Of a DNA stretch of 48,353 nt, positions 3,430-20,579 are shown one piece after another (the first letter of the stretch is position 1; each line of letters starts with the position of its first letter). The translations under genes were made by a program, and so were the position numbers. The stretch is from Myxococcota bacterium (GTDB lineage Bacteria; Myxococcota; XYA12-FULL-58-9; JABJBS01), in the NCBI GenBank assembly GCA_036339465.1, contig JAYZAY010000095.1, positions 1 to 48,353 of the forward strand, given 5' to 3'. The notes under the pieces are model-generated. The model made no database searches, had not been told where the DNA came from, and saw only the letters and a program-made list of their open reading frames with translations.

Positions 3430-4084
3430 GCGATGTAACGGTTTTCCTCACAATAATCTCATTTTGGCATATCTTCCAAAGGGCTTCACTTCCTATAGCA
3501 GTTCAAAGAAATTTAATTTGTAACAGAGTAGGTTCGCCTGACCCAGAGTGGTGATGAGCAACGCTAAAACTCCGAACAAAAATTAAAATCTATGGAACGA
3601 GTACCGGCGCTCTGGCCCGGAGAGATCTGGCTCACGCAAAGCATGGCTATCCTTTACTACCTTGAGGCCAAACACCTACACCCACCATTTTAACCAGCCC
3701 CCCCCTCGAAACGGACCCAAGCCATCCAGCTCGCAGACATTATGAATAGCAGTATCTTCCTCCATCAAAACCTTGGCATCCTGCAAGATCTGAAAAACCG
3801 GCACAACCGCAACAGGAAGCCAGTGCTAGCCTGAGCAAAGCATTGGATTCAACGGGGCTTGCGTGCCCTTGAGACCGCCGTTCACGAAACATCAAAACCA
3901 ACAGAACAGAGGACACAGTGTCTATTTAAGATTTATACCTAGACCACAAATTTATCACACAAGCCGTTTCGGGATTGATATGGGCGCCTTCGAAAATCAA
4001 CAAAAGATCAAAACAAATCTCAATGAGCTTTCTGCATTTCAAGCGCCCCACCCGTCAGTACAATCTCACGGTCTCAAAATTTAA
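3430..4084 (+). pseudogene. maiA: Decayed GST zeta / maleylacetoacetate isomerase (MaiA-like) gene
   Basis: Manual translation: VRLTQSGDEQR*NSEQKLKSMERVPALWPGEIWLTQSMAILYYLEAKHLHPPF*PA...QNLGILQDL...A*AKHWIQRGLRALE, then after a frameshift PQIYHTSRFGIDM...LNELSAFQAPHPSVQ. Several stops and frameshifts; 5' limit approximate. Confidence 0.8.
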
Positions 4085-4765
4085 TTTAAACCAGTTCAAG
4101 TCTTTGAGGCGTTTTATATGTTTTCGATAAATTCCCGACTCATTGGTTTGTTTGACGCGTTTTCGGAAATTCTCCAAGGTCCTCAAAGGAATGTTTCGAC
4201 TGGCCATTCTAGCAAGCCAGACCGGCAGCCACCCTCCAGGATCTGCATCAATGGTATAGCGCACTTGGGTTAGAGTATCGGTCTTAATAGCAAAATAGAA
4301 TTCCCCATTCATCCTCGGCATTCTAACCACACCATCAACCGGTGGTTTTAGAGTTGATTGGGTGGATTTAATCACCACCCGAACCCAACTTTCCGCCCGA
4401 TTAATAATTGCCTTGGTTTTAACCACAACATCTCTATCGCTGATGGGCCATGGCGCTGCACTGCGATTATAAACCAAATGTTCCTTCTCATTATACTTCT
4501 CCAAAAGCGCAGCTTCCCGGCAAGCATGCATCCACTCTGGATTTACATTGACGTCCTGGAGAACCGCCAGAAGTTCGAAAATCCCCGCCTCAATCTCACC
4601 CTCACCTCGAAAAACCGGCATGCTACGGCCCGGTACCGCACGCTGGCTCACAGTGATCCCATTCTCTTCTTTGACAATTTCCCATGCAGCATTGGTATTT
4701 AAGTTGTCTGCGGGTTGTGAAGAGATTAGTAAAGTCAACAGCGTCATCGATTGAACAAGAAACAT
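4055..4765 (-). CDS. START/SRPBCC lipid-binding domain protein, probably exported
   Basis: WEIVKEENGITV, PWPISDRDVV, DPGGWLPVWL motifs; hydrophobic N-terminus; ATG overlaps the upstream TAA (TAATG). Confidence 0.88.
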   Translation of the reverse strand: MFLVQSMTLLTLLISSQPADNLNTNAAWEIVKEENGITVSQRAVPGRSMPVFRGEGEIEAGIFELLAVLQDVNVNPEWMHACREAALLEKYNEKEHLVYNRSAAPWPISDRDVVVKTKAIINRAESWVRVVIKSTQSTLKPPVDGVVRMPRMNGEFYFAIKTDTLTQVRYTIDADPGGWLPVWLARMASRNIPLRTLENFRKRVKQTNESGIYRKHIKRLKDLNWFKLNFETVRLY

Positions 4766-7700
4766 TATGGGCCTGCCTCCAACTCGCCGGTGATGAGTTT
4801 GTGCGTGCTACGACAACCCATCCGCCAAAAGAGTTGCTGTGCATCCTGTAGATAATGACGCCGCAAGCTATCTGTCAATTGCGAATGGTTGGCTAGGTGG
4901 TACATCGCTTGTGCTTCCACCGGCATAACCCCCATTTGGCGACCCAACTCCATTGCTCCCTTAAATTGCTTTGCCGCCCCCTGCAGCTTTTGTTCTACCA
5001 AATAGAAACGACCCAGGAGAAGATGATATGCGGGGTCAAAAAGAACCAATCGCTGCTTGAGCTTTTTCATTGCACCCATGGTCCGTAGGTAACAGTCCCT
5101 GAAAGATCCCTGAATCGCGCTTTCTTCTTGAAACGCTCTCCGGTATAAATGGAGATAAGCATCGGCTAATTTCTCACATGCATAACCTCCCACCCGTCCC
5201 ACCATCGGGTATTCCTCTACCCAGACCAACGCCTCGTGTAAATGAGCAATGCCTTTTCGCATATCCCCATTCATCAATTGATAATTTCCTCGAATCACCA
5301 AGCTAGAAAAATAGCCTTCGGTGTTTTTATGGTCCCGCAGAAATCGATTGTAAGATTCGTACACTCGCGGTGACCAGCGCTTCCCCCCAACCACCAATTG
5401 TATCTTAAGAAGTTGATTAAGTGCATCGAGTTGAAAAGAAAGGTGGCGATTTCGTACGGCCATTTTTCGAAGTTTATCCGCCTCCCCCATTGATTTGGGC
5501 AGCTGACCACTAAAGTAGCAAACATCTGCACTCAAACTGAGAAGTGATTCAATTTGGCGATCATCGGCATAAACCAGCGCTACCTCCATCGTATCTTTGA
5601 TTTTCTTGCGCGAGTCTTCCACGTTCCCCTCCATGAGAAGGTTCTCTGCTTCAAACATCGAACAAAAGATCAATGAGTTAGCCTTAGTTTCATCGGTGTG
5701 GGCTTCACCCGCTCTTTGAAAAAACTTCTGAGCTTCGCTCGCTTTACCCAACCAACCGGCAACCAATCCATTCACCGCTAGGAGCTTACTGCGTTCTAAA
5801 ACATCGCTTGAATGGTTCGAGTAGAGAAAAGAGTCAAAAGCATACGCTCTCGCTGACTTCGGGTCTAAAGCGAGTAGCTCGATCATAGCCAAAACAAACG
5901 CGGCCAAAGCTCGCTCTCCTCGGATCGACTCTAAGTTCGCGCCCTTCTCCTCTCCCACCAACAAACGACCCGCAGTCAACCAGTAATGCTCCAATCGACC
6001 ACCATCGAAATTCCTGAAACGCGAAAGAATCTCTACAGGGCGAGATTCCCCAATAATGTCGATGGAAGTCAAAGCCTTAGCCCGTGCTTCATTAAGTTGG
6101 TCGAGACATAGCAAAGTCTCAGCCCACTTTCGATATCCGGAAGCAAGACGCAACTTTAAATCCGGAGTTTCCTTTTTCTCAACCATCTCCTCCAAAATAG
6201 GCATTGCCAATCGAAACTGCCGGGCCGCTTCGTCATAGGCACCCGCCTCAAGGAACTTGGTGGCGGCAATCTCGAAAAACGCACAAGCCGTCCGCTTTTC
6301 ACCTGCGTGCAATAGGTGTTCTGCCATGCTACTCAAAACCGCAGTGGTTTTCTTTGTCGTATTTTCATTCAGCCATTGAGCCACGACCTTATGCAGCCAT
6401 TTACGTTGCTCCATGAGCATCGACTCATAAACAGCGTCCCTAATCAAAACGTGCGAGAAGGAGTAGTTCAACTCGCCACTGTTACTTTCTTGCTTGAGAA
6501 ATCCCAACGAGCAAAGAGCATCGAGATACTGGCGGACGTTCGGTTTATCCTCCAAAACGGGGTAGACTTCCCTCAACATTCTAATCGTAAATGTTTTCCC
6601 GATGACACTCGCTGTTTTCAACACCAACTGCCGAGCCGGGCTAAGAGAATCCAAACGAGACATAATCAAAGAGTGGATATTATTGGGAACATTCATACGA
6701 GCAAAACCATCCAAAAGTTTCTCGTCTACGACCAATTTCCCATTTTGCACCTTCACTAAGCCTCGGTCCTCAAGCGACATGGTCAGTTCTTTAATAAATA
6801 GAGGATTACCACGGGAATAATCCATAACCATATCAACCAAACCGTCTTCAACGAGCTTAATACCCAAGCAGTGGCCAATCAATTCGGAACAATCACCTGC
6901 ATTTAACGGCTTCAGCACAAAACTCTTCGTCCGGGAATGGTTGTATATCCGCGTAAACCAACGCGGCGGTGGAAGAGGAACTGCTCGACTATTGAGGATA
7001 AAAACGACCCCCTTTACTTGTTTCATCAAATCTGCCGTCAATTCTCCGGAAACACCATCCAACCAATGAAGATTCTCAATCACAACAACAATTTTCTTCG
7101 ACGCAGCAAGTTTGGTCAGCAGATATCCAATAACCTCAGCAATCTTGACCGTACGCGACATCCCCGTAAGTTTCTTCGATAAAGCAGACTCGGGCCACTC
7201 AAGGCCCAAGACATCATTAAGGACTGAAACATAATCCAAGAGCTCCGATCCATCAGCCAAGTGGTGCTCAACGCATGATTGCATCGTCATCGAAGTATTC
7301 TGGATAGATTGCGACAGGATATCCTGAAGAATACTTTGCCAAGCAAAAAACGCGCTTCCTGTATCAAAAGAAGAAATTTCAATACGATAAGCTGAGATTC
7401 CTTTGCTTCTAGCAAACTGCATTGACTTTGCGACCAAATGGGATTTCCCCATTCCAGCATCACCACGAACCAACACCACCCGGCACATCTCTGTCTGCTC
7501 AATACAAGACATGTCATTTTCAATGTGGCCGCGTTCTTCTTTACGACCCACAAAAAAGATACGCGCTACCGACGAGCGCTTAGACCGACTGGTTCCCTTG
7601 AGTCTAAATGCCTCAACAGGCTGGCTTTTTCCCTTAACACGAAGTTTTTGTCCTCGCTCATAAGTAAGATTTTTTAGGGTCAACCCATGGGTTGTCGAAT

Positions 7701-8901
7701 CCACAAGGATCCCTTCACTCGCAGCCTGCATCAATCTCGCGGCAAGATTTACCACATCGCCAATCACGGTATATTCTCGTCTAATTTCACCCCCGATAAC
7801 CCCGCAAAAAGCCCCCCCTGTGGTAACACCCGCAGCAAGCCGTAAACGAAGTTCTGAAAGTTTATTCTGGATCCCCATAGCAGCCCTTACGGCTCGCTCC
7901 CCTCCACCCTCCGCAATACGAGGCGGGATCCCCCAAACCGCAATGACCGACACCCCTTTGTCATCCACACTCAGTTTGTTGACCTCACCATCAAAGGAAT
8001 ACACAACATCTTGGACCAATTGAAAAACAGTTTGGTCCCGGTCCAGGGGTGCTCGCGAATGAATATCGGGTAAATTGAGGAAGAGAACACTAACCGAACG
8101 CAACTCGCCCATATACTGCAGCTGACGCGCATCGATCTTGTTTGTGACGGTCGGTGGCAAAAAAGATCGGAGCTTGGTCAACACCTCGCCGTTCAATTCT
8201 ATGGGATGGGTCACATGCTTGCGAACATTAAACTTCTTATCTCGAAGTAGATAGCACCCCGACGAAAGGGATTTCGCCACCACTCTTGTAGCAATGAGTT
8301 TAAATAGCTTGGGCGACAAAATTATATCACCAGGACTCGCACAACCCTCAGCAAAAACAGCATGCTCAAGTGCCTCACCTTTGATCAGAAATTCCCATTT
8401 TTCGTCAACACCACCCACATAAACTAAATCGAGATCACCCACGGCCAAACCCTGCTTAAACTTCAGGACTTCCCCTAACTTTTTCTCAAGAACCGCCTGT
8501 AATTTTGCAATGTTGGTGGCACATACAAGAACCAATTCGGCTGCTCGGTCCAAACTGGGGATCACCTCAGGACAAGGCCAAATCGCAACCAAGGCATCCC
8601 CGGCAAATTTAACCACCTCTCCACCAAATGAATCGATAATTTTTAGAAGCTCTTCATAATGCTGATTCAAAACCGTACTTATTTTCTCGGCTCCGACCGT
8701 CCCCTCGGCGGCCAACTTCTCTGTAAGGGCTGTGAATCCAGACATATCAAGAAAAAGGGTGCCCCCCTTTGTTCGAACTCTTTTGGGCTCTAGCTCTCGG
8801 TCAAGGGCCTCATGATAATAACGAACCACCGGAGGTGGTAAGAAACTCGCTATCTCCCGAAATACTTCGTCGGTCATGGAAACTGCCACTGTCCCAATCA
8901 A
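4765..8901 (-). CDS. Soluble adenylyl cyclase (ADCY10/sAC-like): tandem class III cyclase domains + STAND ATPase + TPR-like region
   Basis: FLDMSGFT and VKFAGDAL (C1); DDKG and EYTVIGDVVNLAARLM (C2); Walker A GDAGMGKS; IENLHWLD; GNPLF; FSHVLIRDAVY. Probable start at ATG 8877. Confidence 0.9.
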   Translation of the reverse strand: MIGTVAVSMTDEVFREIASFLPPPVVRYYHEALDRELEPKRVRTKGGTLFLDMSGFTALTEKLAAEGTVGAEKISTVLNQHYEELLKIIDSFGGEVVKFAGDALVAIWPCPEVIPSLDRAAELVLVCATNIAKLQAVLEKKLGEVLKFKQGLAVGDLDLVYVGGVDEKWEFLIKGEALEHAVFAEGCASPGDIILSPKLFKLIATRVVAKSLSSGCYLLRDKKFNVRKHVTHPIELNGEVLTKLRSFLPPTVTNKIDARQLQYMGELRSVSVLFLNLPDIHSRAPLDRDQTVFQLVQDVVYSFDGEVNKLSVDDKGVSVIAVWGIPPRIAEGGGERAVRAAMGIQNKLSELRLRLAAGVTTGGAFCGVIGGEIRREYTVIGDVVNLAARLMQAASEGILVDSTTHGLTLKNLTYERGQKLRVKGKSQPVEAFRLKGTSRSKRSSVARIFFVGRKEERGHIENDMSCIEQTEMCRVVLVRGDAGMGKSHLVAKSMQFARSKGISAYRIEISSFDTGSAFFAWQSILQDILSQSIQNTSMTMQSCVEHHLADGSELLDYVSVLNDVLGLEWPESALSKKLTGMSRTVKIAEVIGYLLTKLAASKKIVVVIENLHWLDGVSGELTADLMKQVKGVVFILNSRAVPLPPPRWFTRIYNHSRTKSFVLKPLNAGDCSELIGHCLGIKLVEDGLVDMVMDYSRGNPLFIKELTMSLEDRGLVKVQNGKLVVDEKLLDGFARMNVPNNIHSLIMSRLDSLSPARQLVLKTASVIGKTFTIRMLREVYPVLEDKPNVRQYLDALCSLGFLKQESNSGELNYSFSHVLIRDAVYESMLMEQRKWLHKVVAQWLNENTTKKTTAVLSSMAEHLLHAGEKRTACAFFEIAATKFLEAGAYDEAARQFRLAMPILEEMVEKKETPDLKLRLASGYRKWAETLLCLDQLNEARAKALTSIDIIGESRPVEILSRFRNFDGGRLEHYWLTAGRLLVGEEKGANLESIRGERALAAFVLAMIELLALDPKSARAYAFDSFLYSNHSSDVLERSKLLAVNGLVAGWLGKASEAQKFFQRAGEAHTDETKANSLIFCSMFEAENLLMEGNVEDSRKKIKDTMEVALVYADDRQIESLLSLSADVCYFSGQLPKSMGEADKLRKMAVRNRHLSFQLDALNQLLKIQLVVGGKRWSPRVYESYNRFLRDHKNTEGYFSSLVIRGNYQLMNGDMRKGIAHLHEALVWVEEYPMVGRVGGYACEKLADAYLHLYRRAFQEESAIQGSFRDCYLRTMGAMKKLKQRLVLFDPAYHLLLGRFYLVEQKLQGAAKQFKGAMELGRQMGVMPVEAQAMYHLANHSQLTDSLRRHYLQDAQQLFWRMGCRSTHKLITGELEAGP

Positions 8902-10302: not shown

Positions 10303-12537
10303 CTAATTCATCTGACTTACTTCTTTCTGACTTACTTCTTTGGCCACTGTTTTTTTCGCTGGTCTTTTCTTCAGTCGAAAGACCCGGGATTGTGGAAAGG
10401 TATTCAGCACCTCCTCGAATTTCTCAGAATCAAACCGCCCCAGCATGAAAAGTTGAGTGAAATTGGAACGATAAACAGTTTCATTCACAAGAAATGCATG
10501 ACTCAATTTCCGCGGACCAGTCTCAACCATCAAGAGAGTCTCCTTACTTTCATCGGAAGAAAAAATTCGTTCATCCACCACTTTCCCATGGCGAATCACA
10601 GTAATCCTCCGCAACCGGCTACCTGACTCAGTCTTCCCCACCGAAAGATGAAACTTCAACACACCACAATAAAGGATACCACCCGCTATCCGATTGCAGC
10701 CCAATGGTTTGAAACCCCGTGGCCTTGCGTTGGTTGAGCCACCTTCAGCCAGTGCAGCAATCGAGTGATATTTAAAAGCTAAATCCATAGACAAGTATAG
10801 GTAAAGGGGAATCTTGGCTGACTCGACCACTGGATCGAGAATCGCCTGCCATAAGGTTGTTCGCGACTGGCCATTGTCTTTGATGCCCTGTAGGCCGTCA
10901 CGGGCAAGGAAATTTGCGATGGCCACCAATTCACCGGGATCCGACGAAGAAAGCGCACTTGCCACCAAGGGGGTCTTCTCAGAAACCTGGGAACTCGGGT
11001 CGTGAAAGGTCGCTTTATCCGCGACTGTGGTCAGGGCCGCGCCATAATCCCACCATGCAAAGATGGCTGCGTCCTCGGGCAATAACGACGCCAACCGAGT
11101 AAAATCACGGAATCGCTGGGCATTAATATTAGGGAAAGGCATGTGCTTTAGGCTTTCTTGAGGCACCAATAAACCACCCAAAACAACGACAGTGAGAGAA
11201 AAAATGGACTGCCGGGCAGGACAAGACCAATCCCGACTCACCATGAACGAAAGAAAACCGAAATCTCTTCCCTTTAAAGTCTCCAATGCACCCATACCCA
11301 AACAAAACCAAAAACCAATCCCCATCCCCATGAAGGGGCCTAAATACATGGCAAACCTTCGGGAGGACTGGAATGTCATCAGTCCAAGGGCGAGCAAGGG
11401 AAGCCAAGGAACAGCCAAGCGGAATTGTGAAATACCGAAAATGACAAATCCCAAGAGTGAGAATAAAACCAATCCAGGAGAATCATGAACGCGCTTAAGA
11501 GCATTTCTCCATTCCAGTTTCTTCGTTTCCTGGATGGTCATATAGGTGTTATTAAACCGGGGCGCTTCATCGCCTATTCGGTCTTTTGGAAGTTTTGGTA
11601 TCCCTAAACGAAAACCCTCTTCTTCAGGTGGAGAATACGCATTGGCCTTGGCCTCGCTCACCAAGGAGGGAATCGCCCAATACTTTTGCAGGAAGTCTTG
11701 CACTGAACCACTGGCCACAAGAAAATTGCCCAAGGGGCACGCCAAGACAAAGACCAATCCGCTACCCACCACCTTTTTCAAGTTTTTTCCGTAAAGAGTG
11801 TAGGTCGTAACCAAGACGAGAAAATAAGCCAAGATAAACCCAGGGCGATTGTACCACCAAGTAAAGAGCCACATACTGCCACCAGCCAAAACCGCGTTAC
11901 CCAAAGTAGCCCATATCATTTTGCTACGGGCTCCCAAAAATATAAAAAGTGACGCCATACAGGGGAAAAACAGATTAAGCATATCCGTATCGATGCGCCC
12001 CATGGACGTTCTCAACAAATATTCCGGCGCGAAGGCTCCCATCATCCCTGAGAGCAATCCAACACCAGGGTATCCCGCCACATAGAAGTAGACCCCTAAG
12101 GGAATCATAAAAAGACTCGAAAATAAGAAAAGAAGTGCCGTTCCCGCCAGGTAAAAATCACCATCAAAATACGAAGCTGCCTTCGCAATAAGAAAACTCA
12201 ACAACGGTACTTTTGGTTGCTTATAGAATTCCCCCTCGGGAAAAAATGCCTTGGGGTTTTTCTGGGAATACCCCCCTACCTCATACTCCCTAGCCCACCT
12301 TACCCACAGAAAAGCATCGGCGGTGGAAACCATGGGCGTTTCCCCCACAAAGTGCGTTTCCGCTTTATCAGTCCACGCTAAATATTGTTGCTGCCGAATG
12401 GAAGTGGAGAAAAGCATCGCTAAGACGAGAAGCACGCCAAACAACCACGGAGAAATAACAAACTTCGGCGCAACCATCCTCTGATAGCCAGACCATATGC
12501 GTCTTAGGGCTTCCGCCATGGATTCCTTACCGTCCAT
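10303..12537 (-). CDS. pglB: STT3/PglB-family N-linked oligosaccharyltransferase
   Basis: Multi-TM protein with STADAF, GRIDTDML (DxD), TIQE, RRFAMY and WWDYG motifs. Alternative start ATG 12519. Confidence 0.9.
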   Translation of the reverse strand: MDGKESMAEALRRIWSGYQRMVAPKFVISPWLFGVLLVLAMLFSTSIRQQQYLAWTDKAETHFVGETPMVSTADAFLWVRWAREYEVGGYSQKNPKAFFPEGEFYKQPKVPLLSFLIAKAASYFDGDFYLAGTALLFLFSSLFMIPLGVYFYVAGYPGVGLLSGMMGAFAPEYLLRTSMGRIDTDMLNLFFPCMASLFIFLGARSKMIWATLGNAVLAGGSMWLFTWWYNRPGFILAYFLVLVTTYTLYGKNLKKVVGSGLVFVLACPLGNFLVASGSVQDFLQKYWAIPSLVSEAKANAYSPPEEEGFRLGIPKLPKDRIGDEAPRFNNTYMTIQETKKLEWRNALKRVHDSPGLVLFSLLGFVIFGISQFRLAVPWLPLLALGLMTFQSSRRFAMYLGPFMGMGIGFWFCLGMGALETLKGRDFGFLSFMVSRDWSCPARQSIFSLTVVVLGGLLVPQESLKHMPFPNINAQRFRDFTRLASLLPEDAAIFAWWDYGAALTTVADKATFHDPSSQVSEKTPLVASALSSSDPGELVAIANFLARDGLQGIKDNGQSRTTLWQAILDPVVESAKIPLYLYLSMDLAFKYHSIAALAEGGSTNARPRGFKPLGCNRIAGGILYCGVLKFHLSVGKTESGSRLRRITVIRHGKVVDERIFSSDESKETLLMVETGPRKLSHAFLVNETVYRSNFTQLFMLGRFDSEKFEEVLNTFPQSRVFRLKKRPAKKTVAKEVSQKEVSQMN

Positions 12538-13212: not shown

Positions 13213-14478
13213 TTAGACCTTTCTCAATTTGGCCGCATGCCGATGCCCCATCAGTCCTTCCCGTTCTGCCAACATCATCGTATCATCAATAACTTCTTCC
13301 GAAAGACAACCATCACTTCTCATCCACGTCCGGATCCGCAGAAAATTGTGAACCGAAAGCCCCCCGCTAAACCGTCCCACCCGCCCCGTCGGTAAAACAT
13401 GATTGGGGCCCGCCCCATAGTCACCAAAAACCTCAGCCGCCCCAGCCCCAATAAAAATAGCCCCATAATGCTTCAAAAGTGGAACCATTAACTTAGGTTC
13501 CCCGACCTGCACCTCGAGATGCTCGGGGACTGCTGCGTTGGCCACCGATGCAGCCTCCTCCAGACTACTAACCACCGCGCACCACCCATTCTTCAACGCC
13601 CCCCTCGCCACTTCCGACGTGGGTAAATCGGCCAACTGTTTATTCAATTCAACTTCCACCGCATCCGCCAGCTCCTCGTCCAAGGCAACTAAAAGAGGAA
13701 TGGCATCGGTGTCATGCTCTGCCTGCGCTAATAGGTCGGCCGCCACCAGCGCCGGTGAAGCGCTGGCATCAGCGATCACCAATAATTCAGACGGTCCCGC
13801 CAACATATCGATTGCCACCTCGCCTGCAACCAATTTTTTCGCGGCGGTCACATATCGATTGCCGGGGCCGACAATTATATCGCAAGGTTGAAGAACGCCT
13901 TCCACCCCCCACGTAAACGCACCAATCGCCTGGGCACCGCCAACAGCAATCACTGCGTCAACCCCCGCAACATGGGAAGCTCCCAAAGTGAGAAGTGTCG
14001 GTTTCGGAGAAGCAGCGTAAACACATTCAACACCGGCCGTTCGAGCTGTCACCGCAGTCATCAGCATCGTCGAAGGCAAGGGGAATCGACCACCCGGCAC
14101 ATAACAACCAGCAATTTCTAAAGGCACAATATCCTGGCCAGCGCGCCCCCCAGGAATATCCATGGCAAAGGGTCGAATACTACTCATTTGGCATCGAGCG
14201 AAATTCTCAATTCGCTCTTTTGTTCGAACAAGAAGTGCTTTTTCCGATTCATCCAAGGACTCAAAGACACGAGCCAACTCCACGGGACCAAGAATGAGTG
14301 AGCTCTCACCATCCCAATCCCCCAAGTTTCTTGCCCATCGCTCGAGAGCAGGCCGCCCCTCTGTTTTAATTTCTTTGAGGATCTCCGCAACCCGGGCCAA
14401 GGTATCCTCTTCAAGAGCCGCCGACACCTTTTTCTTTGCATTCTGCGACGAGCATCTTCGCAATAAGTGTTCCGCCAT
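13213..14478 (-). CDS. hisD: Histidinol dehydrogenase
   Basis: GCYVPGG, VGPGNRYV, IDMLAGPSE, DLLAQAEHD, PEHL, GDYGAGPNHVLPT; RBS AGGAG upstream. Confidence 0.97.
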   Translation of the reverse strand: MAEHLLRRCSSQNAKKKVSAALEEDTLARVAEILKEIKTEGRPALERWARNLGDWDGESSLILGPVELARVFESLDESEKALLVRTKERIENFARCQMSSIRPFAMDIPGGRAGQDIVPLEIAGCYVPGGRFPLPSTMLMTAVTARTAGVECVYAASPKPTLLTLGASHVAGVDAVIAVGGAQAIGAFTWGVEGVLQPCDIIVGPGNRYVTAAKKLVAGEVAIDMLAGPSELLVIADASASPALVAADLLAQAEHDTDAIPLLVALDEELADAVEVELNKQLADLPTSEVARGALKNGWCAVVSSLEEAASVANAAVPEHLEVQVGEPKLMVPLLKHYGAIFIGAGAAEVFGDYGAGPNHVLPTGRVGRFSGGLSVHNFLRIRTWMRSDGCLSEEVIDDTMMLAEREGLMGHRHAAKLRKV

Positions 14479-14496
14479 TTCAGACTCCTACCCATT

Positions 14497-15771
14497 CTAA
14501 GTCTTAAGATACCCTGGTTTCGCATCACCACCACGTCGACTTACCTTACGACTGCGGCGATCAAGTTCACCGACCACATCCGAAAAAGAAATACCCTCAG
14601 CAGCCAATCGAACCATGGTAAAATAGAGCAAATCCGCCGCTTCATGTACGACATTCGATGTGCCTTCAGCCGCGACCAATTCATCCACTTCTTCGCGGAT
14701 CTTCGCCGCCAACAAATCAGGTTCTCGATACAATCGCGCCGTGTAAGACCCCTCAGGAGCGGTGGCCTTTCGGTTCAATAACGTCGATTCCAAGTATTTC
14801 AATCCCCGGCCCTCGTCCCAGCAAGAAAATCGTTCTAAATGACAAAATCCACGACCGGCCTGTTTCACCCGAAAAAGCAATGCGTCCGCATCACAATCAA
14901 GACGCACGTCCAAAAGTTCTTGAATGGCCCCCGAGGTAGAACCTTTACGCCAAATCTCTTTACGCGAACGACTATAATAGACACCAGTTCCCGTTTTGAG
15001 TGCCTCTTTCAAACTTTCGGCAGTGGAGTAAACCAAACCCAAAGCTCGGTCCCATTCATCCACCACCACTGTGGTAAAAAGTCCGTCAGCCCGGTCGGTG
15101 TTCAGCATCTCCGCGAGTACATCGGCCACATCAAAATGCCCTTTATAAAGAGCCATCCCCACCTGCGCATCGATGCCCATATCATGAAGCTTTGCAATTT
15201 CAGCTGGGGTAGCAATCCCCCCCGCCACCGTGAGCTGTGCCTCACCTGCAGCTTCTTTCAATTTCTGCACATGGTCAAAATCAATTCCCACCAATCGCCC
15301 CTCCCGCTCCACAAAGGTAACCAAGAACCCAAAAACGTAGGGGGAAAGCTCCCTCAAGCGATCGAGAACCGAAAGACCGGTTTTAGTCTTCCAACCATGC
15401 ACCACGACCTCGCCGTCCACGCCGTCCAAAGCCGCAATGAGGCGACCCTTAGGAAGTTGTTGCAAAAGTTCAGGTTTGGCAGCGGTTCCCAAAATGATTT
15501 TAGATGCTCCACGGTCAAGCCAATTCATGGCTTTTTCATAGGAACGAATGCCACCTCCTACCCGACAGGGCGCCACCTTAAGAAGGGCGTTGATAACCTC
15601 TGTGTTATCGCCATGGCCCATTGCGGCATCTAAATCGATCACAGCGACTTCACCCGTTCGCCCAAAATTCCGCGCGAGAGGCACCGGATCACCGGCATTG
15701 ATTTCGAGCTTTTTGCCACCAATCAGCTGAACCGCATTACCATTTTGAATATCCACCGAAGGTATGATCAT
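14497..15771 (-). CDS. hisAIE: Trifunctional HisA-HisI-HisE fusion
   Basis: HisA barrel (IIPSVDI, VIDLDAA, VGGGIR, ILGTAA, VAGGI); HisI (YYSRSR..W.KG.TSG, DCDADAL, CH...SC); HisE (SYT, KIREE..E, HEAADLLY). ATGA overlap with hisF. Confidence 0.93.
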   Translation of the reverse strand: MIIPSVDIQNGNAVQLIGGKKLEINAGDPVPLARNFGRTGEVAVIDLDAAMGHGDNTEVINALLKVAPCRVGGGIRSYEKAMNWLDRGASKIILGTAAKPELLQQLPKGRLIAALDGVDGEVVVHGWKTKTGLSVLDRLRELSPYVFGFLVTFVEREGRLVGIDFDHVQKLKEAAGEAQLTVAGGIATPAEIAKLHDMGIDAQVGMALYKGHFDVADVLAEMLNTDRADGLFTTVVVDEWDRALGLVYSTAESLKEALKTGTGVYYSRSRKEIWRKGSTSGAIQELLDVRLDCDADALLFRVKQAGRGFCHLERFSCWDEGRGLKYLESTLLNRKATAPEGSYTARLYREPDLLAAKIREEVDELVAAEGTSNVVHEAADLLYFTMVRLAAEGISFSDVVGELDRRSRKVSRRGGDAKPGYLKT

Positions 15772-16526
15772 AATCTGACCTCGCCGCCCAATTCTCGAAG
15801 TTCTTTTTTCAGCCGATCCACGGTATAATCCCCATCATGAAAAATAGACGCTGCCAACACAGCATCCACCCCCACATCAATCGCATCTTTCATGTGTTGA
15901 GGTGAGTTAGCTCCACCGGATGCAATAATGGGAATACCCACCACCGCACGAATCGCCGTGAGCATCTTCAAATCATAACCAGAGCGGGTGCCATCTCGGT
16001 CCCAACTGGTAAGAAGAATTTCACCGCAACCACGTTCCTGGGCTTCTCGAGCCCAATCCGTGGCTTTTTTGGGTAACCTTTCGGTACCCGATCGAACAAT
16101 CACTTCCCAACTACCTAGGTCGTTGTTCCAAGCCGCATCGATGGCTAAAATCGTGCATTGAGAACCAAACTGCTTGGCCATCTCATCGATTATCAAAGGA
16201 TTGATGACTGCCGCGGTATTGACACTCACCTTATCTGCACCCGCATCGAGAAGCCTAGAAGCGTCCTCTAACCTGCGCACCCCTCCTCCACAGGTCAGTG
16301 GGATCCGAAGTCTCTTCCGGACAGCTTTCACCGTGTCGACCTGATGCCCACGCCCTTCAGGAGTGGCGGATACATCGAGGATGATAAGTTCGTCAGCACC
16401 CTGCTTCTCGTAAGCCTTCGACAATTCCACAGGATTGCCCGCATCACGTAGATTTTGGAATTGCACCCCCTTCACCACTCGACCATCGCGACAATCCAAA
16501 CAAGGAATAATTCGTGTGGTCAACAT
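15768..16526 (-). CDS. hisF: Imidazole glycerol phosphate synthase, cyclase subunit
   Basis: RIIPCLD, VVKG, GADEL, GGGVR, GADKVSVNTAA, GEILLTS.DRDGT, IIASGG, LAASIFH. Start reassigned to ATG 16526 (TGATG overlap with hisH). Confidence 0.97.
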   Translation of the reverse strand: MLTTRIIPCLDCRDGRVVKGVQFQNLRDAGNPVELSKAYEKQGADELIILDVSATPEGRGHQVDTVKAVRKRLRIPLTCGGGVRRLEDASRLLDAGADKVSVNTAAVINPLIIDEMAKQFGSQCTILAIDAAWNNDLGSWEVIVRSGTERLPKKATDWAREAQERGCGEILLTSWDRDGTRSGYDLKMLTAIRAVVGIPIIASGGANSPQHMKDAIDVGVDAVLAASIFHDGDYTVDRLKKELRELGGEVRL

Positions 16527-17134
16527 CAAGCCACCCCCAAACCGAGCCAACGCTTTAAAAGAGTTTCGCCCCATTCCCCCGACAGTTCCGGGTGGAATTG
16601 ACAAATCAACTGAGGTCCTCGTTCCATAGCCGCAACGTATTCACCACCATAGTCAAACGTCGCCACGTCCCAACCAACCACCGTCGCTCCAAAGGCATAG
16701 GAGTTGGCAAAATAAGCATAGCCATCCCTAATATATCGATGGTTTGGGGACGAAATAACCTTATTCCAGCCAATCTGGGGCACCGAATAAGTATCAGGTA
16801 AGCGAATGACAGGCCCAGCAACCACCCCCAACCCCTCGGAACCTGGAGATTCTTCACTTTCCTGTCCAGCAAGTTGCATACCCAAGCAAATACTAAGCAG
16901 CGGCTTACCCACCGAAAACCGCTCTCTGAGTGGTGAAACCAGTGCCCGCTTCTCCAAACCTTCCATGCAGGCACCAAAACTACCCACTCCAGGTAGGACA
17001 AGGTAGTCCGAATCCAGGATTTCCTCTTCGACCTCGATCACTTTCCAACCGACATTTAGCCTTTCAAACGCAGCACACACCGAAGCCAAATTGGCCAATC
17101 CCGTTCGTAGAATAGAGACAAAAGGGACACTCAT
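16526..17134 (-). CDS. hisH: Imidazole glycerol phosphate synthase, glutaminase subunit
   Basis: LPGVG, ICLGMQ (catalytic Cys), PQIGWN, YFANSY, QFHPE. Confidence 0.96.
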   Translation of the reverse strand: MSVPFVSILRTGLANLASVCAAFERLNVGWKVIEVEEEILDSDYLVLPGVGSFGACMEGLEKRALVSPLRERFSVGKPLLSICLGMQLAGQESEESPGSEGLGVVAGPVIRLPDTYSVPQIGWNKVISSPNHRYIRDGYAYFANSYAFGATVVGWDVATFDYGGEYVAAMERGPQLICQFHPELSGEWGETLLKRWLGLGVA

Positions 17135-17724
17135 ACAAGCACTCCCTTAGTGCTTGGGACATCTTTTGATCGAGAATCGAGACCGACCGCCCCCCTCAAT
17201 GCCAGCGCGACCGCCTTGAAGGCTGCCTCTGAAATATGGTGGTCATTTTCGCCCTTTATTTGGTCGACGTGTAAACAAAGACGGCCCGCCATGGCCATAG
17301 ACTGAAAGAAGTGAGGTATGTTTTCGGTCGCCAAGTCGCCCAATTTTTCCCTTCGAAAACAAAGCTCGATGCTTGGATGCGGCCGACCAGAAAGATCCAC
17401 AACCGCTCTTACCAGTGCTTCGTCCAGCGGCGCATAAGCACTAAAAAATCGTCGAATACCCTTTCGTTCTCCGAGCGCCTCATTCACCGCGCTCCCAAGC
17501 GCCAATGCACAATCTTCAACCGTGTGATGATCATCAATTTCAATATCACCCTTACAATGTAGCTTCAGATCGATTTTACTGTGTTTTGATAAAGCCCCCA
17601 GCATATGGTCCAAAAAGGGAATCCCTGTATCGATATCGCCTTTGCCCGCACCATCTAGGTCAAGTTCACAAACAATATCGGTCTCCGATGTTGTTCTATT
17701 TACGCTCGCACTTCTCATACTCAT
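17131..17724 (-). CDS. hisB: Imidazoleglycerol-phosphate dehydratase (monofunctional)
   Basis: RTTSET, FLDHML, DDHHTVED, DLSGRP, NDHHISEAAFK, PSTKG; no N-terminal phosphatase domain. ATG 17724 fits the GAGGAG RBS. Confidence 0.97.
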   Translation of the reverse strand: MSMRSASVNRTTSETDIVCELDLDGAGKGDIDTGIPFLDHMLGALSKHSKIDLKLHCKGDIEIDDHHTVEDCALALGSAVNEALGERKGIRRFFSAYAPLDEALVRAVVDLSGRPHPSIELCFRREKLGDLATENIPHFFQSMAMAGRLCLHVDQIKGENDHHISEAAFKAVALALRGAVGLDSRSKDVPSTKGVLV

Positions 17725-19457
17725 ACCCATAGCTCCTCTAATTCAGCCACGTGGTTCAAAACCGCTGCCGCACCTGCCCCAAAAAGGAGGGACTGCTTCA
17801 ACGCAACATTTTCACCAGGAGCCACCACCCCAATGGGGATGACTCTCGCCTCAGACGCCGCCACCAAATCATCGACCGTATCGCCCAACATCCAAGCTCT
17901 CTTGATGGAGAGTTTTTCCAAAGCCAGCAAAACAGGATCAGGGCTCGGCTTCGGGGCCGCATCCTCCATACAAACCGAAATCTCCAAAAGGGAACCAAGG
18001 TCAAAGTGTTCCAAAGTACGTTCGGCGTCCAATCGTGGCCGGCCGGTAACCACCGCCAAAGAGTACCGTTTTTTTAAGGCAACGAGCCATTCGCGTTCTA
18101 CCATCAAGGTCTCATTTCGCCACAACCCTGGCTGCTCTTCAGTACCATGATAAAACGCTTCAAATTTGTGTCGAACCTCCTCAAAACAGACTTCGGTTCC
18201 TTTGGCCAAAATCAATCGATGCGTCACATCCCAGTCGTTGTTGGCGTTACCCTCAGCCTTAATCGTGGCGATATCCTCAAGTGAAATATTCACCCCAAAA
18301 CAAGCCCCTGTTTGAATCATTGCTTGCCTATAAGATCCACTAACATCCACCAAAACGCCGTCCATATCGAAAAGGATACCTTCCGGCGAAAACACGGTTC
18401 TAAGGGAGCGGTCCAACCGTTTCATTAAATCATCTCGTCCAGGACACGAAATTCGCAGAGCTCGGTCGAGGCGCTCATTGTTGCTAAAAGCACGTAGCCC
18501 TATCCCCAATGCCTCCATCCCTCGCTGAACAAATTCTCTATTCTCAAAATAGCCTAAAACAAAATTCGCCTGAGATTCTGGCGTTTTGAAATTGAACTCT
18601 CGCAAACACGATTGTAATTGGCGCCGCTGATTCCGGATCGTCTCGATATACGCGTCTGTGGTTTCTTTCGCTTCCCGTAGCCACAACTTCCCCAAAGAGA
18701 GAGAGACCTGTGACACCGAATACGGACCACTTGCCGCCCGCATCCAGTCAATGACCTCGACACCACCCAAAGCATACCCCAACCTTAAGCCCGGGAGTCC
18801 CCATGCCTTGGAAAAAGTGCGCATCACGACAATGTTGGGAGTGCCCAAAAAATCCTTCGTTGGATCATTATCCGCAAACTCCACATAGGCAAAATCCACA
18901 AGCCATAAAATGCCCGGGTATTTCTCAGCCATGGTGATGATCTTCCTCGGCTCCACCACCTGACCCGTTGGATTGTTAGGAGAAACAATGGTGACCAACC
19001 CCACCGAATCATCGAGAGACTTTTCCAATTCCTCCCACGGAAAAGCCCCATCCCAAAGGACCGAACATAGTTCAGCACCGGTCATTCGAGCATATTGCGG
19101 AATCATCTCAAAAGTTGGAATCGGCATCACCAACTTGCGACCACCCCATAAAACGGCACGACAAGCCCGCTCAATCCCTTCATCAGCCCCCGCAGTCACT
19201 AAAACCTTGTCTGCACCAATACCAAAATGCTCTCCCAAGGCACTTTCGAGCTCACCGGCCTTGGGGTAACGAACCACATTGGACAACTCAATTTCAGCCA
19301 AGCCCCGTCGAAGTAGCGTTTTCTCAGCGTCACTCAAGGTCGCCCGCTCGGTGTTTCCAAGTGGAAGGTCGATTTTTCCACCCATGGGGGGGATTTTATA
19401 GCCACTCTTTCCCACAAACGCAGGATTCCCTTGAAGTTTGGCCGGGGACACTTCCAT
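17721..19457 (-). CDS. hisC: Histidinol-phosphate aminotransferase fused to a C-terminal HAD hydrolase (TIGR01548-like, putative histidinol-phosphatase)
   Basis: SPNNPTG, D.AYVEF, RTFSKAWGLPGLRLGY (PLP Lys), SQANF; then FDMDGVLVD, VTGRP, KP, GDTVDD from about 18390 downward. Confidence 0.92.
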   Translation of the reverse strand: MEVSPAKLQGNPAFVGKSGYKIPPMGGKIDLPLGNTERATLSDAEKTLLRRGLAEIELSNVVRYPKAGELESALGEHFGIGADKVLVTAGADEGIERACRAVLWGGRKLVMPIPTFEMIPQYARMTGAELCSVLWDGAFPWEELEKSLDDSVGLVTIVSPNNPTGQVVEPRKIITMAEKYPGILWLVDFAYVEFADNDPTKDFLGTPNIVVMRTFSKAWGLPGLRLGYALGGVEVIDWMRAASGPYSVSQVSLSLGKLWLREAKETTDAYIETIRNQRRQLQSCLREFNFKTPESQANFVLGYFENREFVQRGMEALGIGLRAFSNNERLDRALRISCPGRDDLMKRLDRSLRTVFSPEGILFDMDGVLVDVSGSYRQAMIQTGACFGVNISLEDIATIKAEGNANNDWDVTHRLILAKGTEVCFEEVRHKFEAFYHGTEEQPGLWRNETLMVEREWLVALKKRYSLAVVTGRPRLDAERTLEHFDLGSLLEISVCMEDAAPKPSPDPVLLALEKLSIKRAWMLGDTVDDLVAASEARVIPIGVVAPGENVALKQSLLFGAGAAAVLNHVAELEELWV

Positions 19458-19468
19458 ATCCAATCTCC

Positions 19469-20344
19469 TTAGGGAATGAGCTGAGAGATTCTTGAAACCG
19501 CAATGTCGGTCCCTCCCAAGGACTTAATCTTGGGAATAACTTCAGGAAGAATGGCCCTCGGAACCGCCGCTTTCACCGCAAACCCCGAATTATCCCGTAA
19601 ATGAGACACCGTGGCCCCTCGCATGCAAGGCATTGCATCCACCACCGCATCGAGAAATTCGTTCGCCACATTTACTTCCACCATCACACGGCGGCGGCCC
19701 TCAATCGCCGAACCTAAGAGCATGGCGAATTGGTCGATAAGTGCTCGTTTTTTGGGATTCTCATAAGCCCTCCGGTTGGCAAAAAGTCGGGTTGATGAAC
19801 GCATCACTTCGTGAACAATCGCCAAATTATTTGCCCCCAAAGTAGCGCCGGTGGCCGTATTATCGACGATACAATCTGCATCTTCCGGTGGGAAAACCTC
19901 TGTCGCTCCATAGGAACGAACAAACCGAGCATTGAGCCCCTCCTCAGCAATCCATTTTTCAGTGAGTGTTTGATACTCAGAAGCAATCAACAATTCCTGA
20001 TTGGGCAGGTGGCCATCTACCAAAATATCATGGGGAGCAGCAGCAACAACCCTCACAGGGTCCATGCCCGTATCGAGAATTTCCACCAAATCCACCTGGA
20101 GTTCACAAACCCAGTCGTATCCCGCAAACCCAAGATCTCTTGAGCCCACATCTAACATCTCGACAACGTTTTGTGGTTTTAGGATCTTGACCTCGGTATC
20201 CGGGAAGTTGATGCTTGGTCGATACCCTCGCTCCGTTCCCTTCAATAGGATCCCCGCGTCTTCCATGAGCTTCACGATCCCCTCGTGCATACGCCCCTTT
20301 GGCAAGCCTAGCTTTAAGCTATGTCGATTCTCTCCTATGAACAT
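19469..20344 (-). CDS. hisG: ATP phosphoribosyltransferase, long form
   Basis: LPKGR, DLGFAGYD, YGATE, ADCIVD.TATG.TL..N.L, plus C-terminal regulatory domain. GGAGG RBS 6 nt before ATG 20344. Confidence 0.96.
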   Translation of the reverse strand: MFIGENRHSLKLGLPKGRMHEGIVKLMEDAGILLKGTERGYRPSINFPDTEVKILKPQNVVEMLDVGSRDLGFAGYDWVCELQVDLVEILDTGMDPVRVVAAAPHDILVDGHLPNQELLIASEYQTLTEKWIAEEGLNARFVRSYGATEVFPPEDADCIVDNTATGATLGANNLAIVHEVMRSSTRLFANRRAYENPKKRALIDQFAMLLGSAIEGRRRVMVEVNVANEFLDAVVDAMPCMRGATVSHLRDNSGFAVKAAVPRAILPEVIPKIKSLGGTDIAVSRISQLIP

Positions 20345-20579
20345 CACCATCCTCCAAGTAGGCACATTTCCCAAATGTTTTAGCTACCTTAAATCGACTT
20401 TCTTTGAGATGAAAGAGACCGACTCAAATTTGCTGGCTTTGGGATGAGTGAGTGGTACGCGATAACTCCCCCGAAAAACCGATAGTGTGACGATGAGGTA
20501 GAACGACGCTTGGCCATACGCAAACGATTCAGTTCTCGAAGAAGATTGCCCACCCCTAGGATAAACCCTTCGCAGTTAG

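Follow-up and report, generated by a model that had tools for sequence, protein, structure and literature searches.

In fungi, the His4 protein carries a HisI-HisE module (HisIE) and a histidinol dehydrogenase (HisD) behind an N-terminal region of 160-220 residues, for which no conserved domain and no PSI-BLAST match are reported in the accessible text of Fani et al. 2007 (PMC1963479). The same text describes a search for prokaryotic HIS4-like proteins that found none. Bacterial trifunctional HisA-IE proteins are mentioned in the similarity network of Witek et al. 2021 (PMC8102479), whose accessible part also mentions that fungal HIS4 lies close to Myxococcales-like sequences. Here we analysed a stretch of 48,353 nucleotides (nt) from a Myxococcota bacterium (assembly GCA_036339465.1, contig JAYZAY010000095.1), hereafter called the window, in which a gene fusing hisA, hisI and hisE is followed by hisD (13213..15771, minus strand). 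Our results make it likely that this gene belongs to a bacterial family of trifunctional HisA-IE proteins that shares one fusion ancestor with the HisIE of eukaryotes, that the HisA barrel decayed in fungi, and that the HisD part of His4 has a separate history.

The fusion gene (14497..15771, minus strand, like all the genes of the operon) encodes 424 amino acids (aa) with Pfam and NCBIfam matches to the three enzymes. A HisA barrel domain, the isomerase of phosphoribosylformimino-aminoimidazole carboxamide ribonucleotide (ProFAR), occupies aa 1-213 (15133..15771; PF00977, His_biosynth, E 3.1e-42); it is full length, covering positions 1-227 of the 228 of the profile with 146.4 bits in the genome search. 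The C-terminal half contains both HisI, the phosphoribosyl-AMP (PR-AMP) cyclohydrolase (aa 246-318, 14818..15036; PF01502, PRA-CH, E 2.5e-27), and then HisE, the phosphoribosyl-ATP (PR-ATP) pyrophosphohydrolase (aa 325-406, 14554..14799; PF01503, PRA-PH, E 8.9e-20; TIGR03188 72.5 bits, above the cut-off of 42.7). The HisA half is nearer to bacterial HisA (TIGR00007, 148 bits) than to HisF (TIGR00735, 45.9 bits) or to the eukaryotic His6 (hisA_euk, TIGR02129, 39.5 bits). At its end, a TAG stop is followed by an 18-nt spacer, AATGGGTAGGAGTCTGAA (14479..14496), with a GGAG Shine-Dalgarno-like ribosome-binding motif, and by the ATG of hisD. The list of open reading frames (ORFs), the Pfam matches and the junction sequence thus agree with the initial annotation of this DNA, which had described a 424-aa HisA, HisI and HisE ORF with hisD 18 nt downstream. 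Within its assembly, which is 92.8% complete, no other gene matches HisI and no other match is of the HisA type. A third PF00977 match in the genome (contig C51:26777-27460, minus strand) is WbuZ/HisF2-like (242 bits to TIGR03572, below the cut-off) and is probably a paralogue involved in glycan amidation rather than a HisA.

Proteins with this architecture are numerous. A search for proteins of similar length found 7431 at E <= 0.001 among 8000 scored candidates, and in the best 120 of these all three domains were present in every case (120/120), with query coverage of 95-100% and, the window's own copy aside, identities of 56-65% to the query, the nearest listed relative standing at 65%. A collection of species genomes encodes at least 483 relatives among 599 pattern matches. 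The best 80 loci are titled Myxococcota, Planctomycetota/Phycisphaerae, Acidimicrobiia, Geminicoccaceae, Sulfomarinibacteraceae, Bradymonadales, Gemmatimonadales and others, and include one cultured strain, Marinimicrococcus flavescens. In the 84 loci that we examined, a hisF-like ORF is found upstream in 72, as in the window, and hisD directly downstream in 58; four others have HisA-IE-HisD in one open frame, which brings the loci with a downstream or fused hisD to 62, and in the remaining 22 none was seen, possibly because of contig ends. The window gene is therefore an unremarkable representative of a large family whose distribution over bacterial phyla is patchy. At NCBI its members are named only 'phosphoribosyl-ATP diphosphatase', which leaves two of their three activities out of sight. 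Of 31 relatives of the window genome, 11 have the full-length fusion and others have split genes. Both states can occur in a single family (f1): when G003, G005 and G009 were compared with G000, G001 and G002, some genomes had the fusion with a divergent hisD and others had split hisI/hisE with a standard hisD, which suggests that the whole type of his operon was replaced by transfer within that family of genomes.

Across 40 aligned family members, including the window protein, the invariant positions are D7, D116, G72-G74, A183-G185 and G205 in the HisA part, which we take to hold both catalytic aspartates and the glycine motifs that bind phosphate. In the HisI part they are D292, C293, D294, D296, C310, H311 and C317, and in the HisE part E360, E361, E364, E377 and D380, presumably the metal-binding residues of the former and the acidic motifs of the latter. 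Because the family is common and these 40 members keep the residues of the three domains, the window gene is presumably an ordinary, active member of a known architecture. A single polypeptide would then perform three consecutive activities, with HisE converting PR-ATP to PR-AMP, HisI converting PR-AMP to ProFAR and HisA converting ProFAR to its phosphoribulosyl isomer (PRFAR), and its domains might hand over the substrates from one to the next.

The HisIE half of the window protein resembles fungal His4 more than it does ordinary bacterial HisIE. A search of longer proteins, with residues 218-424 as the query, yielded 944 matches, of which the best 120 were compared: 118 are His4-type proteins (PRA-CH, PRA-PH and Histidinol_dh domains), many from named fungi, and two, P0125 and P0179, also have a HisA domain. 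Identity to the window HisIE has a median of 55.8% in these His4-type proteins (n=120, range 53.2-59.7%), 57.1% in other bacterial fusions (n=119, range 52.5-63.3%) and 42.4% in the closest standalone bacterial HisIE (n=47, range 39.6-45.7%), each group being made of the top matches of its own search and hence biased towards the query. For example, the identity is 57% (113/197) with the His4 of Umbelopsis and 56% (112/201) with that of Ogataea. Two motifs separate the groups further: DRxDGL is present in 110/120 bacterial fusions and 71/120 His4-type proteins, and RRxG[DN]AK in 98/120 and 119/120, respectively, and both are absent from the 61 standalone HisIE (0/61). The subfamily made of bacterial fusions and His4 is split from standalone HisIE with a support of 100 in both HisIE trees described below. 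Taken together, these sequence comparisons support the assignment of the HisIE module to a subfamily common to fungal His4 and distinct from ordinary bacterial HisIE. This likeness to yeast His4 had been proposed in the initial annotation, with DRxDGL and RRxGDAK as unusual marks; the motifs it quoted (DRADGLFTTVVVD ... RRGGDAKP) are in the translation, and the identities, the motif counts and the phylogeny all side with it.

The initial annotation had also conjectured that the unexplained N-terminus of His4 is a degenerate HisA barrel, and here several lines of evidence converge. In His4 the region before HisIE has a median length of 206 aa, close to that of the HisA domain in bacteria (about 222 aa). 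When profiles of 111 fungal N-termini and 119 bacterial HisA domains were compared with hhalign, the global alignment had P 3.3e-6 over 174 co-linear columns, and the local one P 2.2e-6 with fungal residues 49-94 on HisA residues 75-117. The controls gave 2.5e-4 for HisF (in the equivalent region), 8.7e-3 for HisD, 0.46 for HisIE and 0.65 for the reversed HisA alignment. With full-length alignments the match extends from HisIE back to fungal residue 65, which corresponds to HisA residue 75. A hidden Markov model (HMM) of bacterial HisA matched 12 of the 111 fungal N-termini at E < 1e-3 (E for that small set), in one register throughout. We then made an iterative HMM search from bacterial HisA in a set of 390 N-terminal regions and 780 reversed or shuffled decoys (Z = 1e6); it drew seven fungal sequences at iteration 2, with a best E of 2.4e-6, and ended with 116 of the 118 fungal sequences, 356 of the 390 N-regions and none of the 780 decoys. 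Furthermore, a graded series is found among the 150 best clusters at 50% identity: the HisA domain is intact in some and weak in others, and certain members are matched by the profiles of both bacterial HisA and fungal N-domains. An M-[IL]-[IL]-P start and a motif resembling WLDxGAxK can be recognised by inspection in the oomycete, protist and fungal forms. Pairwise comparisons gave no such signal: when the window protein was compared with fungal His4 by BLAST, no N-terminal match was significant, the best being the 12-residue start MIIPSVDIQNGN against MIIPAFDESNGS (E 0.46), and phmmer with the whole Umbelopsis His4 against solved chains returned no HisA match for the N-domain at E up to 1.

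Structural models are consistent with these profiles. We modelled a 474-aa fungal-type protein with AlphaFold2, using an alignment restricted to 107 fungal-type sequences. The model has a mean predicted local distance difference test score (pLDDT) of 87.4, and strands and helices alternate over its residues 1-215, with eight strands in all. Eight strands are likewise present in the model of Ogataea His4, whose N-domain is shorter (residues 1-167); there, no helix is assigned between strands 5 and 6 or between strands 6 and 7. Foldseek retrieved HisIE first and then triosephosphate isomerase (TIM) barrels at E ~1e-3, including HisAP, HisF and HisA. In a search of the N-domain that is independent of Foldseek, the HisA 4gj1_A came first (Z 12.9, root-mean-square deviation 3.5, 190 residues aligned). 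The residues expected of an active HisA have largely changed in fungi: D116 is S in 44% and D in 18%, D/V/R stand at GGG72-74, and the AGG183-185 motif is no longer there (replaced or unaligned); L85, G88, A89, K91 and R110 are kept. Hence, the profiles and models make it very likely that the N-domain of fungal His4 is a catalytically dead remnant of HisA. In fungi the barrel would have lost its catalytic and phosphate-binding residues and persisted as the N-terminal domain, where it may have a structural role. This would offer an origin for a domain without detectable homologue in the accessible text of Fani et al. 2007 (PMC1963479), and the series of eukaryotic forms, running from an active HisA to a pseudo-enzyme, would be a natural example of how a domain decays within a multifunctional enzyme. 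A literature search outside the subscription journals found no paper naming the His4 N-domain as HisA-derived. Decayed HisA domains were also observed in the G+C-rich, bacterial-looking members P0436, P0434 and P0379, and in P0436, where GGGIR is replaced, the sequence is placed inside the bacterial clade of the 141-row HisIE tree. With such members, fungi may not be the only lineage in which the HisA barrel has decayed.

A number of observations count against the interpretation developed so far. At iteration 1 of the HMM search (Z = 1e6), none of the 118 fungal sequences was significant against the starting bacterial HisA profile, so that the link between the fungal N-domain and HisA is transitive and could in principle reflect profile drift. 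The strongest direct signal of the N-domain covers only about 45 residues, in the beta3-beta4 region. Foldseek ranks triosephosphate isomerase and PcrB above HisA and HisF, all at E ~1e-3, and in the other structural search ribulose-phosphate epimerase (12.8) and further TIM barrels come so close to HisA, within one Z unit, that they count as ties. Taken by itself, the fold thus identifies a TIM barrel but does not single out HisA. The window protein itself misses the equivalog cut-offs of HisA (TIGR00007, 148.4 bits vs 228.95) and of HisIE (NF002747, 147.2 bits vs 187). Finally, the eukaryote labels on representative clusters are mostly inferred, with an organism name or a eukaryote-collection source in 13 of the 30 looked up, and the protist sequences come from transcriptomes in which contamination is possible, yet they group with other eukaryotes at 96/90.

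Fused forms were also seen in eukaryotes. Among Amoebozoa, Protostelium nocturnum has a protein of 1501 aa with the order HisA-I-E-HisD-HisC-HAD (P0464), Clastostelium recurvatum one of 777 aa with HisA-I-E-HisG (P0365) and Arcella intermedia one of 1242 aa with I-E-HisD-HisC (P0410). The CRuMs flagellate Rigifila ramosa has a weak HisA followed by IE (P0408, 508 aa). An additional N-terminal region of unknown nature precedes the weak HisA and IE in the choanoflagellate Salpingoeca urceolata (P0430, 859 aa, where HisA is matched by the local profile only, with no PF00977 match) and in the diplonemid Sulcionema specki (P0438, 911 aa). In Phytophthora, an N-region precedes IE (P0374, 477 aa). 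The HisA-IE parts of Clastostelium and Protostelium are intact, and the window HisA-IE is 57% identical over 423 aa to the former and 54.6% identical over 425 aa to the latter. The similarity extends to other genes of the operon, since the window HisG is 46% identical to the HisG of Clastostelium and the window HisC-HAD is 35% identical over 546 aa to the C-terminus of Protostelium. A metagenomic protein of 1586 aa, P0499, has the HisA-I-E-D-C-HAD order of P0464, with the HisC-HAD pair at its end; its HisD is sister to that of the window with a support of 96 in the HisD tree. In Ascoidea rubescens, the public gene model P0420 (1414 aa) joins a Na+-dependent nucleoside transporter to His4 and probably represents two merged gene models.

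How did bacteria and eukaryotes come to share this gene? We propose that the bacterial fusion family and the eukaryotic HisIE lineage, the latter including fungal His4, the stramenopile and oomycete forms, Amoebozoa, CRuMs, the choanoflagellate and the diplonemid, would descend from a single HisA-HisIE fusion ancestor. On balance we favour a transfer from a bacterium to a eukaryote, which seems the more probable direction. Under the opposite course, early eukaryotes would have formed the fusion and a single transfer would have brought it into a bacterium, from which it would have reached other bacterial phyla; this appears unlikely, though less so than the other alternatives discussed below. 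The trees differ on this point. A 327-row FastTree tree served as an overview only; its long-branch joins were flagged and no conclusion rests on it. From it we subsampled a quick 141-row HisIE tree, dropping the probable fragments P0242-P0295 save three named eukaryotic ones. Rooted on standalone HisIE, this tree places the bacterial fusions in one clade (97) nested within eukaryote-type diversity, as expected if the fusion had come from eukaryotes. The same direction is suggested by the predominance of eukaryote-type architectures in the best 150 clusters at 50% identity, by the patchiness of the bacterial members, with fusion and split genes both within family f1, and by the precedent of HIS7, for which the accessible text of Fani et al. 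(PMC1963479) proposed a transfer from eukaryotes to deltaproteobacteria. Against it, a more careful 73-row HisIE tree restricted to named rows (23 eukaryotes, 36 bacteria and 14 outgroup sequences) places the 23 eukaryotes in one clade (96/90) and attaches the outgroup among bacteria. Forcing bacterial monophyly costs 16 log-likelihood units and is not rejected by the approximately unbiased test (p-AU 0.208), which leaves room for either direction.

The trees of HisA and HisD also count against a eukaryotic source. In the HisA-domain tree, which includes E. coli hisA from the K-12 record and the standalone HisA of split-type relatives, bacterial and eukaryotic fused HisA form one clade apart from standalone HisA (Shimodaira-Hasegawa-like approximate likelihood ratio test, SH-aLRT, 94). 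This clade is divergent, with a stem of 1.09, and eukaryotic fused HisA, the Amoebozoa included, falls among its bacterial members at forks of 82-89; the degenerate rows sit on branches of 3-5 changes per site. The amoebozoan HisD likewise lies inside the bacterial fusion-associated clade (forks 84-90), and in bacteria the gene is part of a tightly coupled, conserved operon, all of which fits poorly with a eukaryotic origin. The root between bacterial and eukaryotic members shifts between analyses. Returning to the bacterium-to-eukaryote direction, we tentatively suggest, as a scenario that we hold to be possible though not the likelier outcome, that eukaryotic HisIE, including that of His4, comes from one fusion gene acquired once and early from a bacterium with such an operon (Myxococcota-like, Planctomycetota-like or similar), the His4 N-domain being a previously unreported HisA fossil. 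If so, the amoebozoan mega-fusions (HisA-I-E-D-C-HAD) would preserve still more of the operon in a single gene. The set formed by HisA-IE, hisD, hisC-HAD and hisG could be used to test an ancient transfer of histidine biosynthesis between bacteria and eukaryotes.

The HisD part of His4 tells another story. The window hisD (13213..14478, minus strand, 421 aa) encodes a histidinol dehydrogenase of the fusion-associated lineage (PF00815, Histidinol_dh, aa 23-419, E 6.9e-122; TIGR00069 389 bits, above the cut-off of 243.8). We built a HisD tree of 58 rows, with E. coli hisD from the K-12 record and with the fusion-associated rows thinned at random to 30 plus the window (L088-L094 were left out). 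It is divided by a split with a support of 100 and a total branch length of 1.3. On one side are the standard HisD: that of E. coli, those of three relatives whose genomes are of the split type, and 15 fungal-type sequences (nine named and six representatives). On the other are the 31 fusion-associated hisD, four bacterial-type fused forms, the two Amoebozoa and, besides these, the representatives P0477 and P0510. The window HisD is 33-35% identical to the fungal HisD parts and 47-50% to the amoebozoan HisD (50% in Protostelium). The best solved match of fungal HisD is HISN8 of Medicago with 480 bits, followed by E. coli with 369 bits, and the window HisD scores 190 bits against the former and 204 bits against the latter. 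The PF00815 scores of the bacterial sequences differ in the same way: 497-541 bits for the standard HisD of relatives with split hisI/hisE, and 407-449 bits for the hisD linked to fusions. Because fungal HisD groups with standard HisD, apart from the fusion-associated lineage, the tree indicates that the HisD part of His4 was joined independently, from the standard lineage. The HisIE and HisD parts of His4 would thus have different histories, and, by its phylogenetic position, the window hisD represents the unfused state that preceded the HisA-IE-HisD proteins of bacteria and Amoebozoa, and does not stand in this relation to fungal His4.

The proposal of the initial annotation, which saw in this type of operon a pre-fusion form of His4 that may be related to its donor, stands for HisIE and the N-domain and is at most tentative as to a donor. 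It fails for hisD, the supposed precursor of the HisD of His4, since fungal and window HisD fall on opposite sides of the split. A donor of the whole of fungal His4, HisD included, is accordingly very unlikely, however attractive it is made by the frequent position of hisD behind hisA-IE, by the loci where the two share an open frame, by the existence of fused bacterial-type HisA-IE-HisD proteins (P0125, P0179, P0490) and by the real links of HisIE and the N-domain to His4: it is opposed by the separation of fungal HisD from all 31 fusion-associated hisD, by the greater identity of the window HisD to the amoebozoan than to the fungal sequences, and by the Medicago HISN8 scores. The weakest alternative, which takes the His4 N-domain for a small barrel or Rossmann-like domain unrelated to HisA, with a likeness due to convergence or to a profile artefact, can invoke the silent pairwise BLAST, the absence of PF00977 from the Pfam matches of 118 of the 120 listed His4-type proteins, the ties of many TIM barrels in fold searches and the failure of PSI-BLAST in 2007 (PMC1963479, accessible text), but is most improbable given a domain of the same position and near-equal length directly before a 56%-identical HisIE, a co-linear profile match in which the paralogue HisF comes second and unrelated controls have P of 0.009 or worse, graded intermediates matched by both profiles, an iterative search that drew no decoy, and the start and WLDxGAxK motifs common to oomycete, fungal and protist forms.

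The fusion gene and hisD close a complete his operon on the minus strand, in the order hisG - hisC::HAD - hisB - hisH - hisF - hisA-IE - hisD. The first gene, hisG (19469..20374), encodes an ATP phosphoribosyltransferase of the long form with a C-terminal domain (Pfam HisG, E 1.7e-33; HisG_C, E 7.3e-16). It is followed by a hisC fused to a HAD hydrolase of the TIGR01548 family (17721..19463; Aminotran_1_2 at aa 59-344, HAD_2 at aa 363-543), with 195 bits to the TIGR01141 hisC model and 148.6 bits to TIGR01548, above the cut-off of 140.2. Next is hisB (17131..17730; Pfam IGPD, E 2.2e-60), which encodes the imidazoleglycerol-phosphate dehydratase only. Because this hisB lacks a phosphatase domain, the HAD part of hisC::HAD is probably the histidinol-phosphate phosphatase, in which case the single operon would cover every step of the histidine pathway. 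The glutamine amidotransferase subunit is encoded by hisH (16526..17134; Pfam GATase, E 3.4e-12) and the cyclase subunit by hisF (15768..16604), whose match to TIGR00735 (309.8 bits, above the cut-off of 294.55) covers aa 27-277, and whose true start is probably a Met near nt 16526. The stop of hisF overlaps the start codon of hisA-IE as ATGA, and the fusion gene would thus sit in a translationally coupled operon. Directly downstream of the operon, a 744-aa membrane protein (10303-12537, minus strand) has a weak match to the N-terminal part of the STT3 oligosaccharyltransferase (E 2.6e-6). Further on, a START-domain protein (4055-4765, minus strand, E 6.5e-14) adjoins a protein of 1378 aa (4765-8901, minus strand) that combines adenylate/guanylate cyclase and AAA_16 domains; START domains are uncommon in bacteria. 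Over the whole window (1-48353) most long ORFs are on the minus strand, and the skew between guanine and cytosine is negative in all 2-kb bins, from -0.04 to -0.24.

Overall, the closest described systems to this locus are the bacterial ProFAR isomerase/PRA-CH/PRA-PH proteins of the accessible part of PMC8102479, which have the same order of domains and the same hisF - hisAIE - hisD neighbourhood, with nothing material that differs. The folds and Pfam families are also those of enterobacterial HisIE (6j22, 6j2l) and of standalone HisA (4gj1, 1qo2), but these are encoded by separate genes; the solved HisIE chains score only 74 bits against the window protein, the closest standalone HisIE that we found have neither motif, and the fused HisA domains form a clade of their own, apart from standalone HisA. 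We also considered the HISN2 of land plants as a close relative, but the Medicago protein (7bgm) reaches only 62 bits against the window protein and 50 bits against that of Umbelopsis, and we did not place it in the subfamily. In Amoebozoa (Protostelium, Clastostelium and Arcella), one reading frame joins what are separate genes of the operon in the window. Fungal His4/HIS2, finally, has the HisIE subfamily and the DRxDGL and RRxGDAK motifs in common with the window protein, but differs from it at both ends: its HisD is joined after HisE, where the window has a stop, a spacer and a hisD with its own ATG and ribosome-binding site, and it has lost the HisA residues, whereas the HisA domain of the window keeps all those that are conserved.

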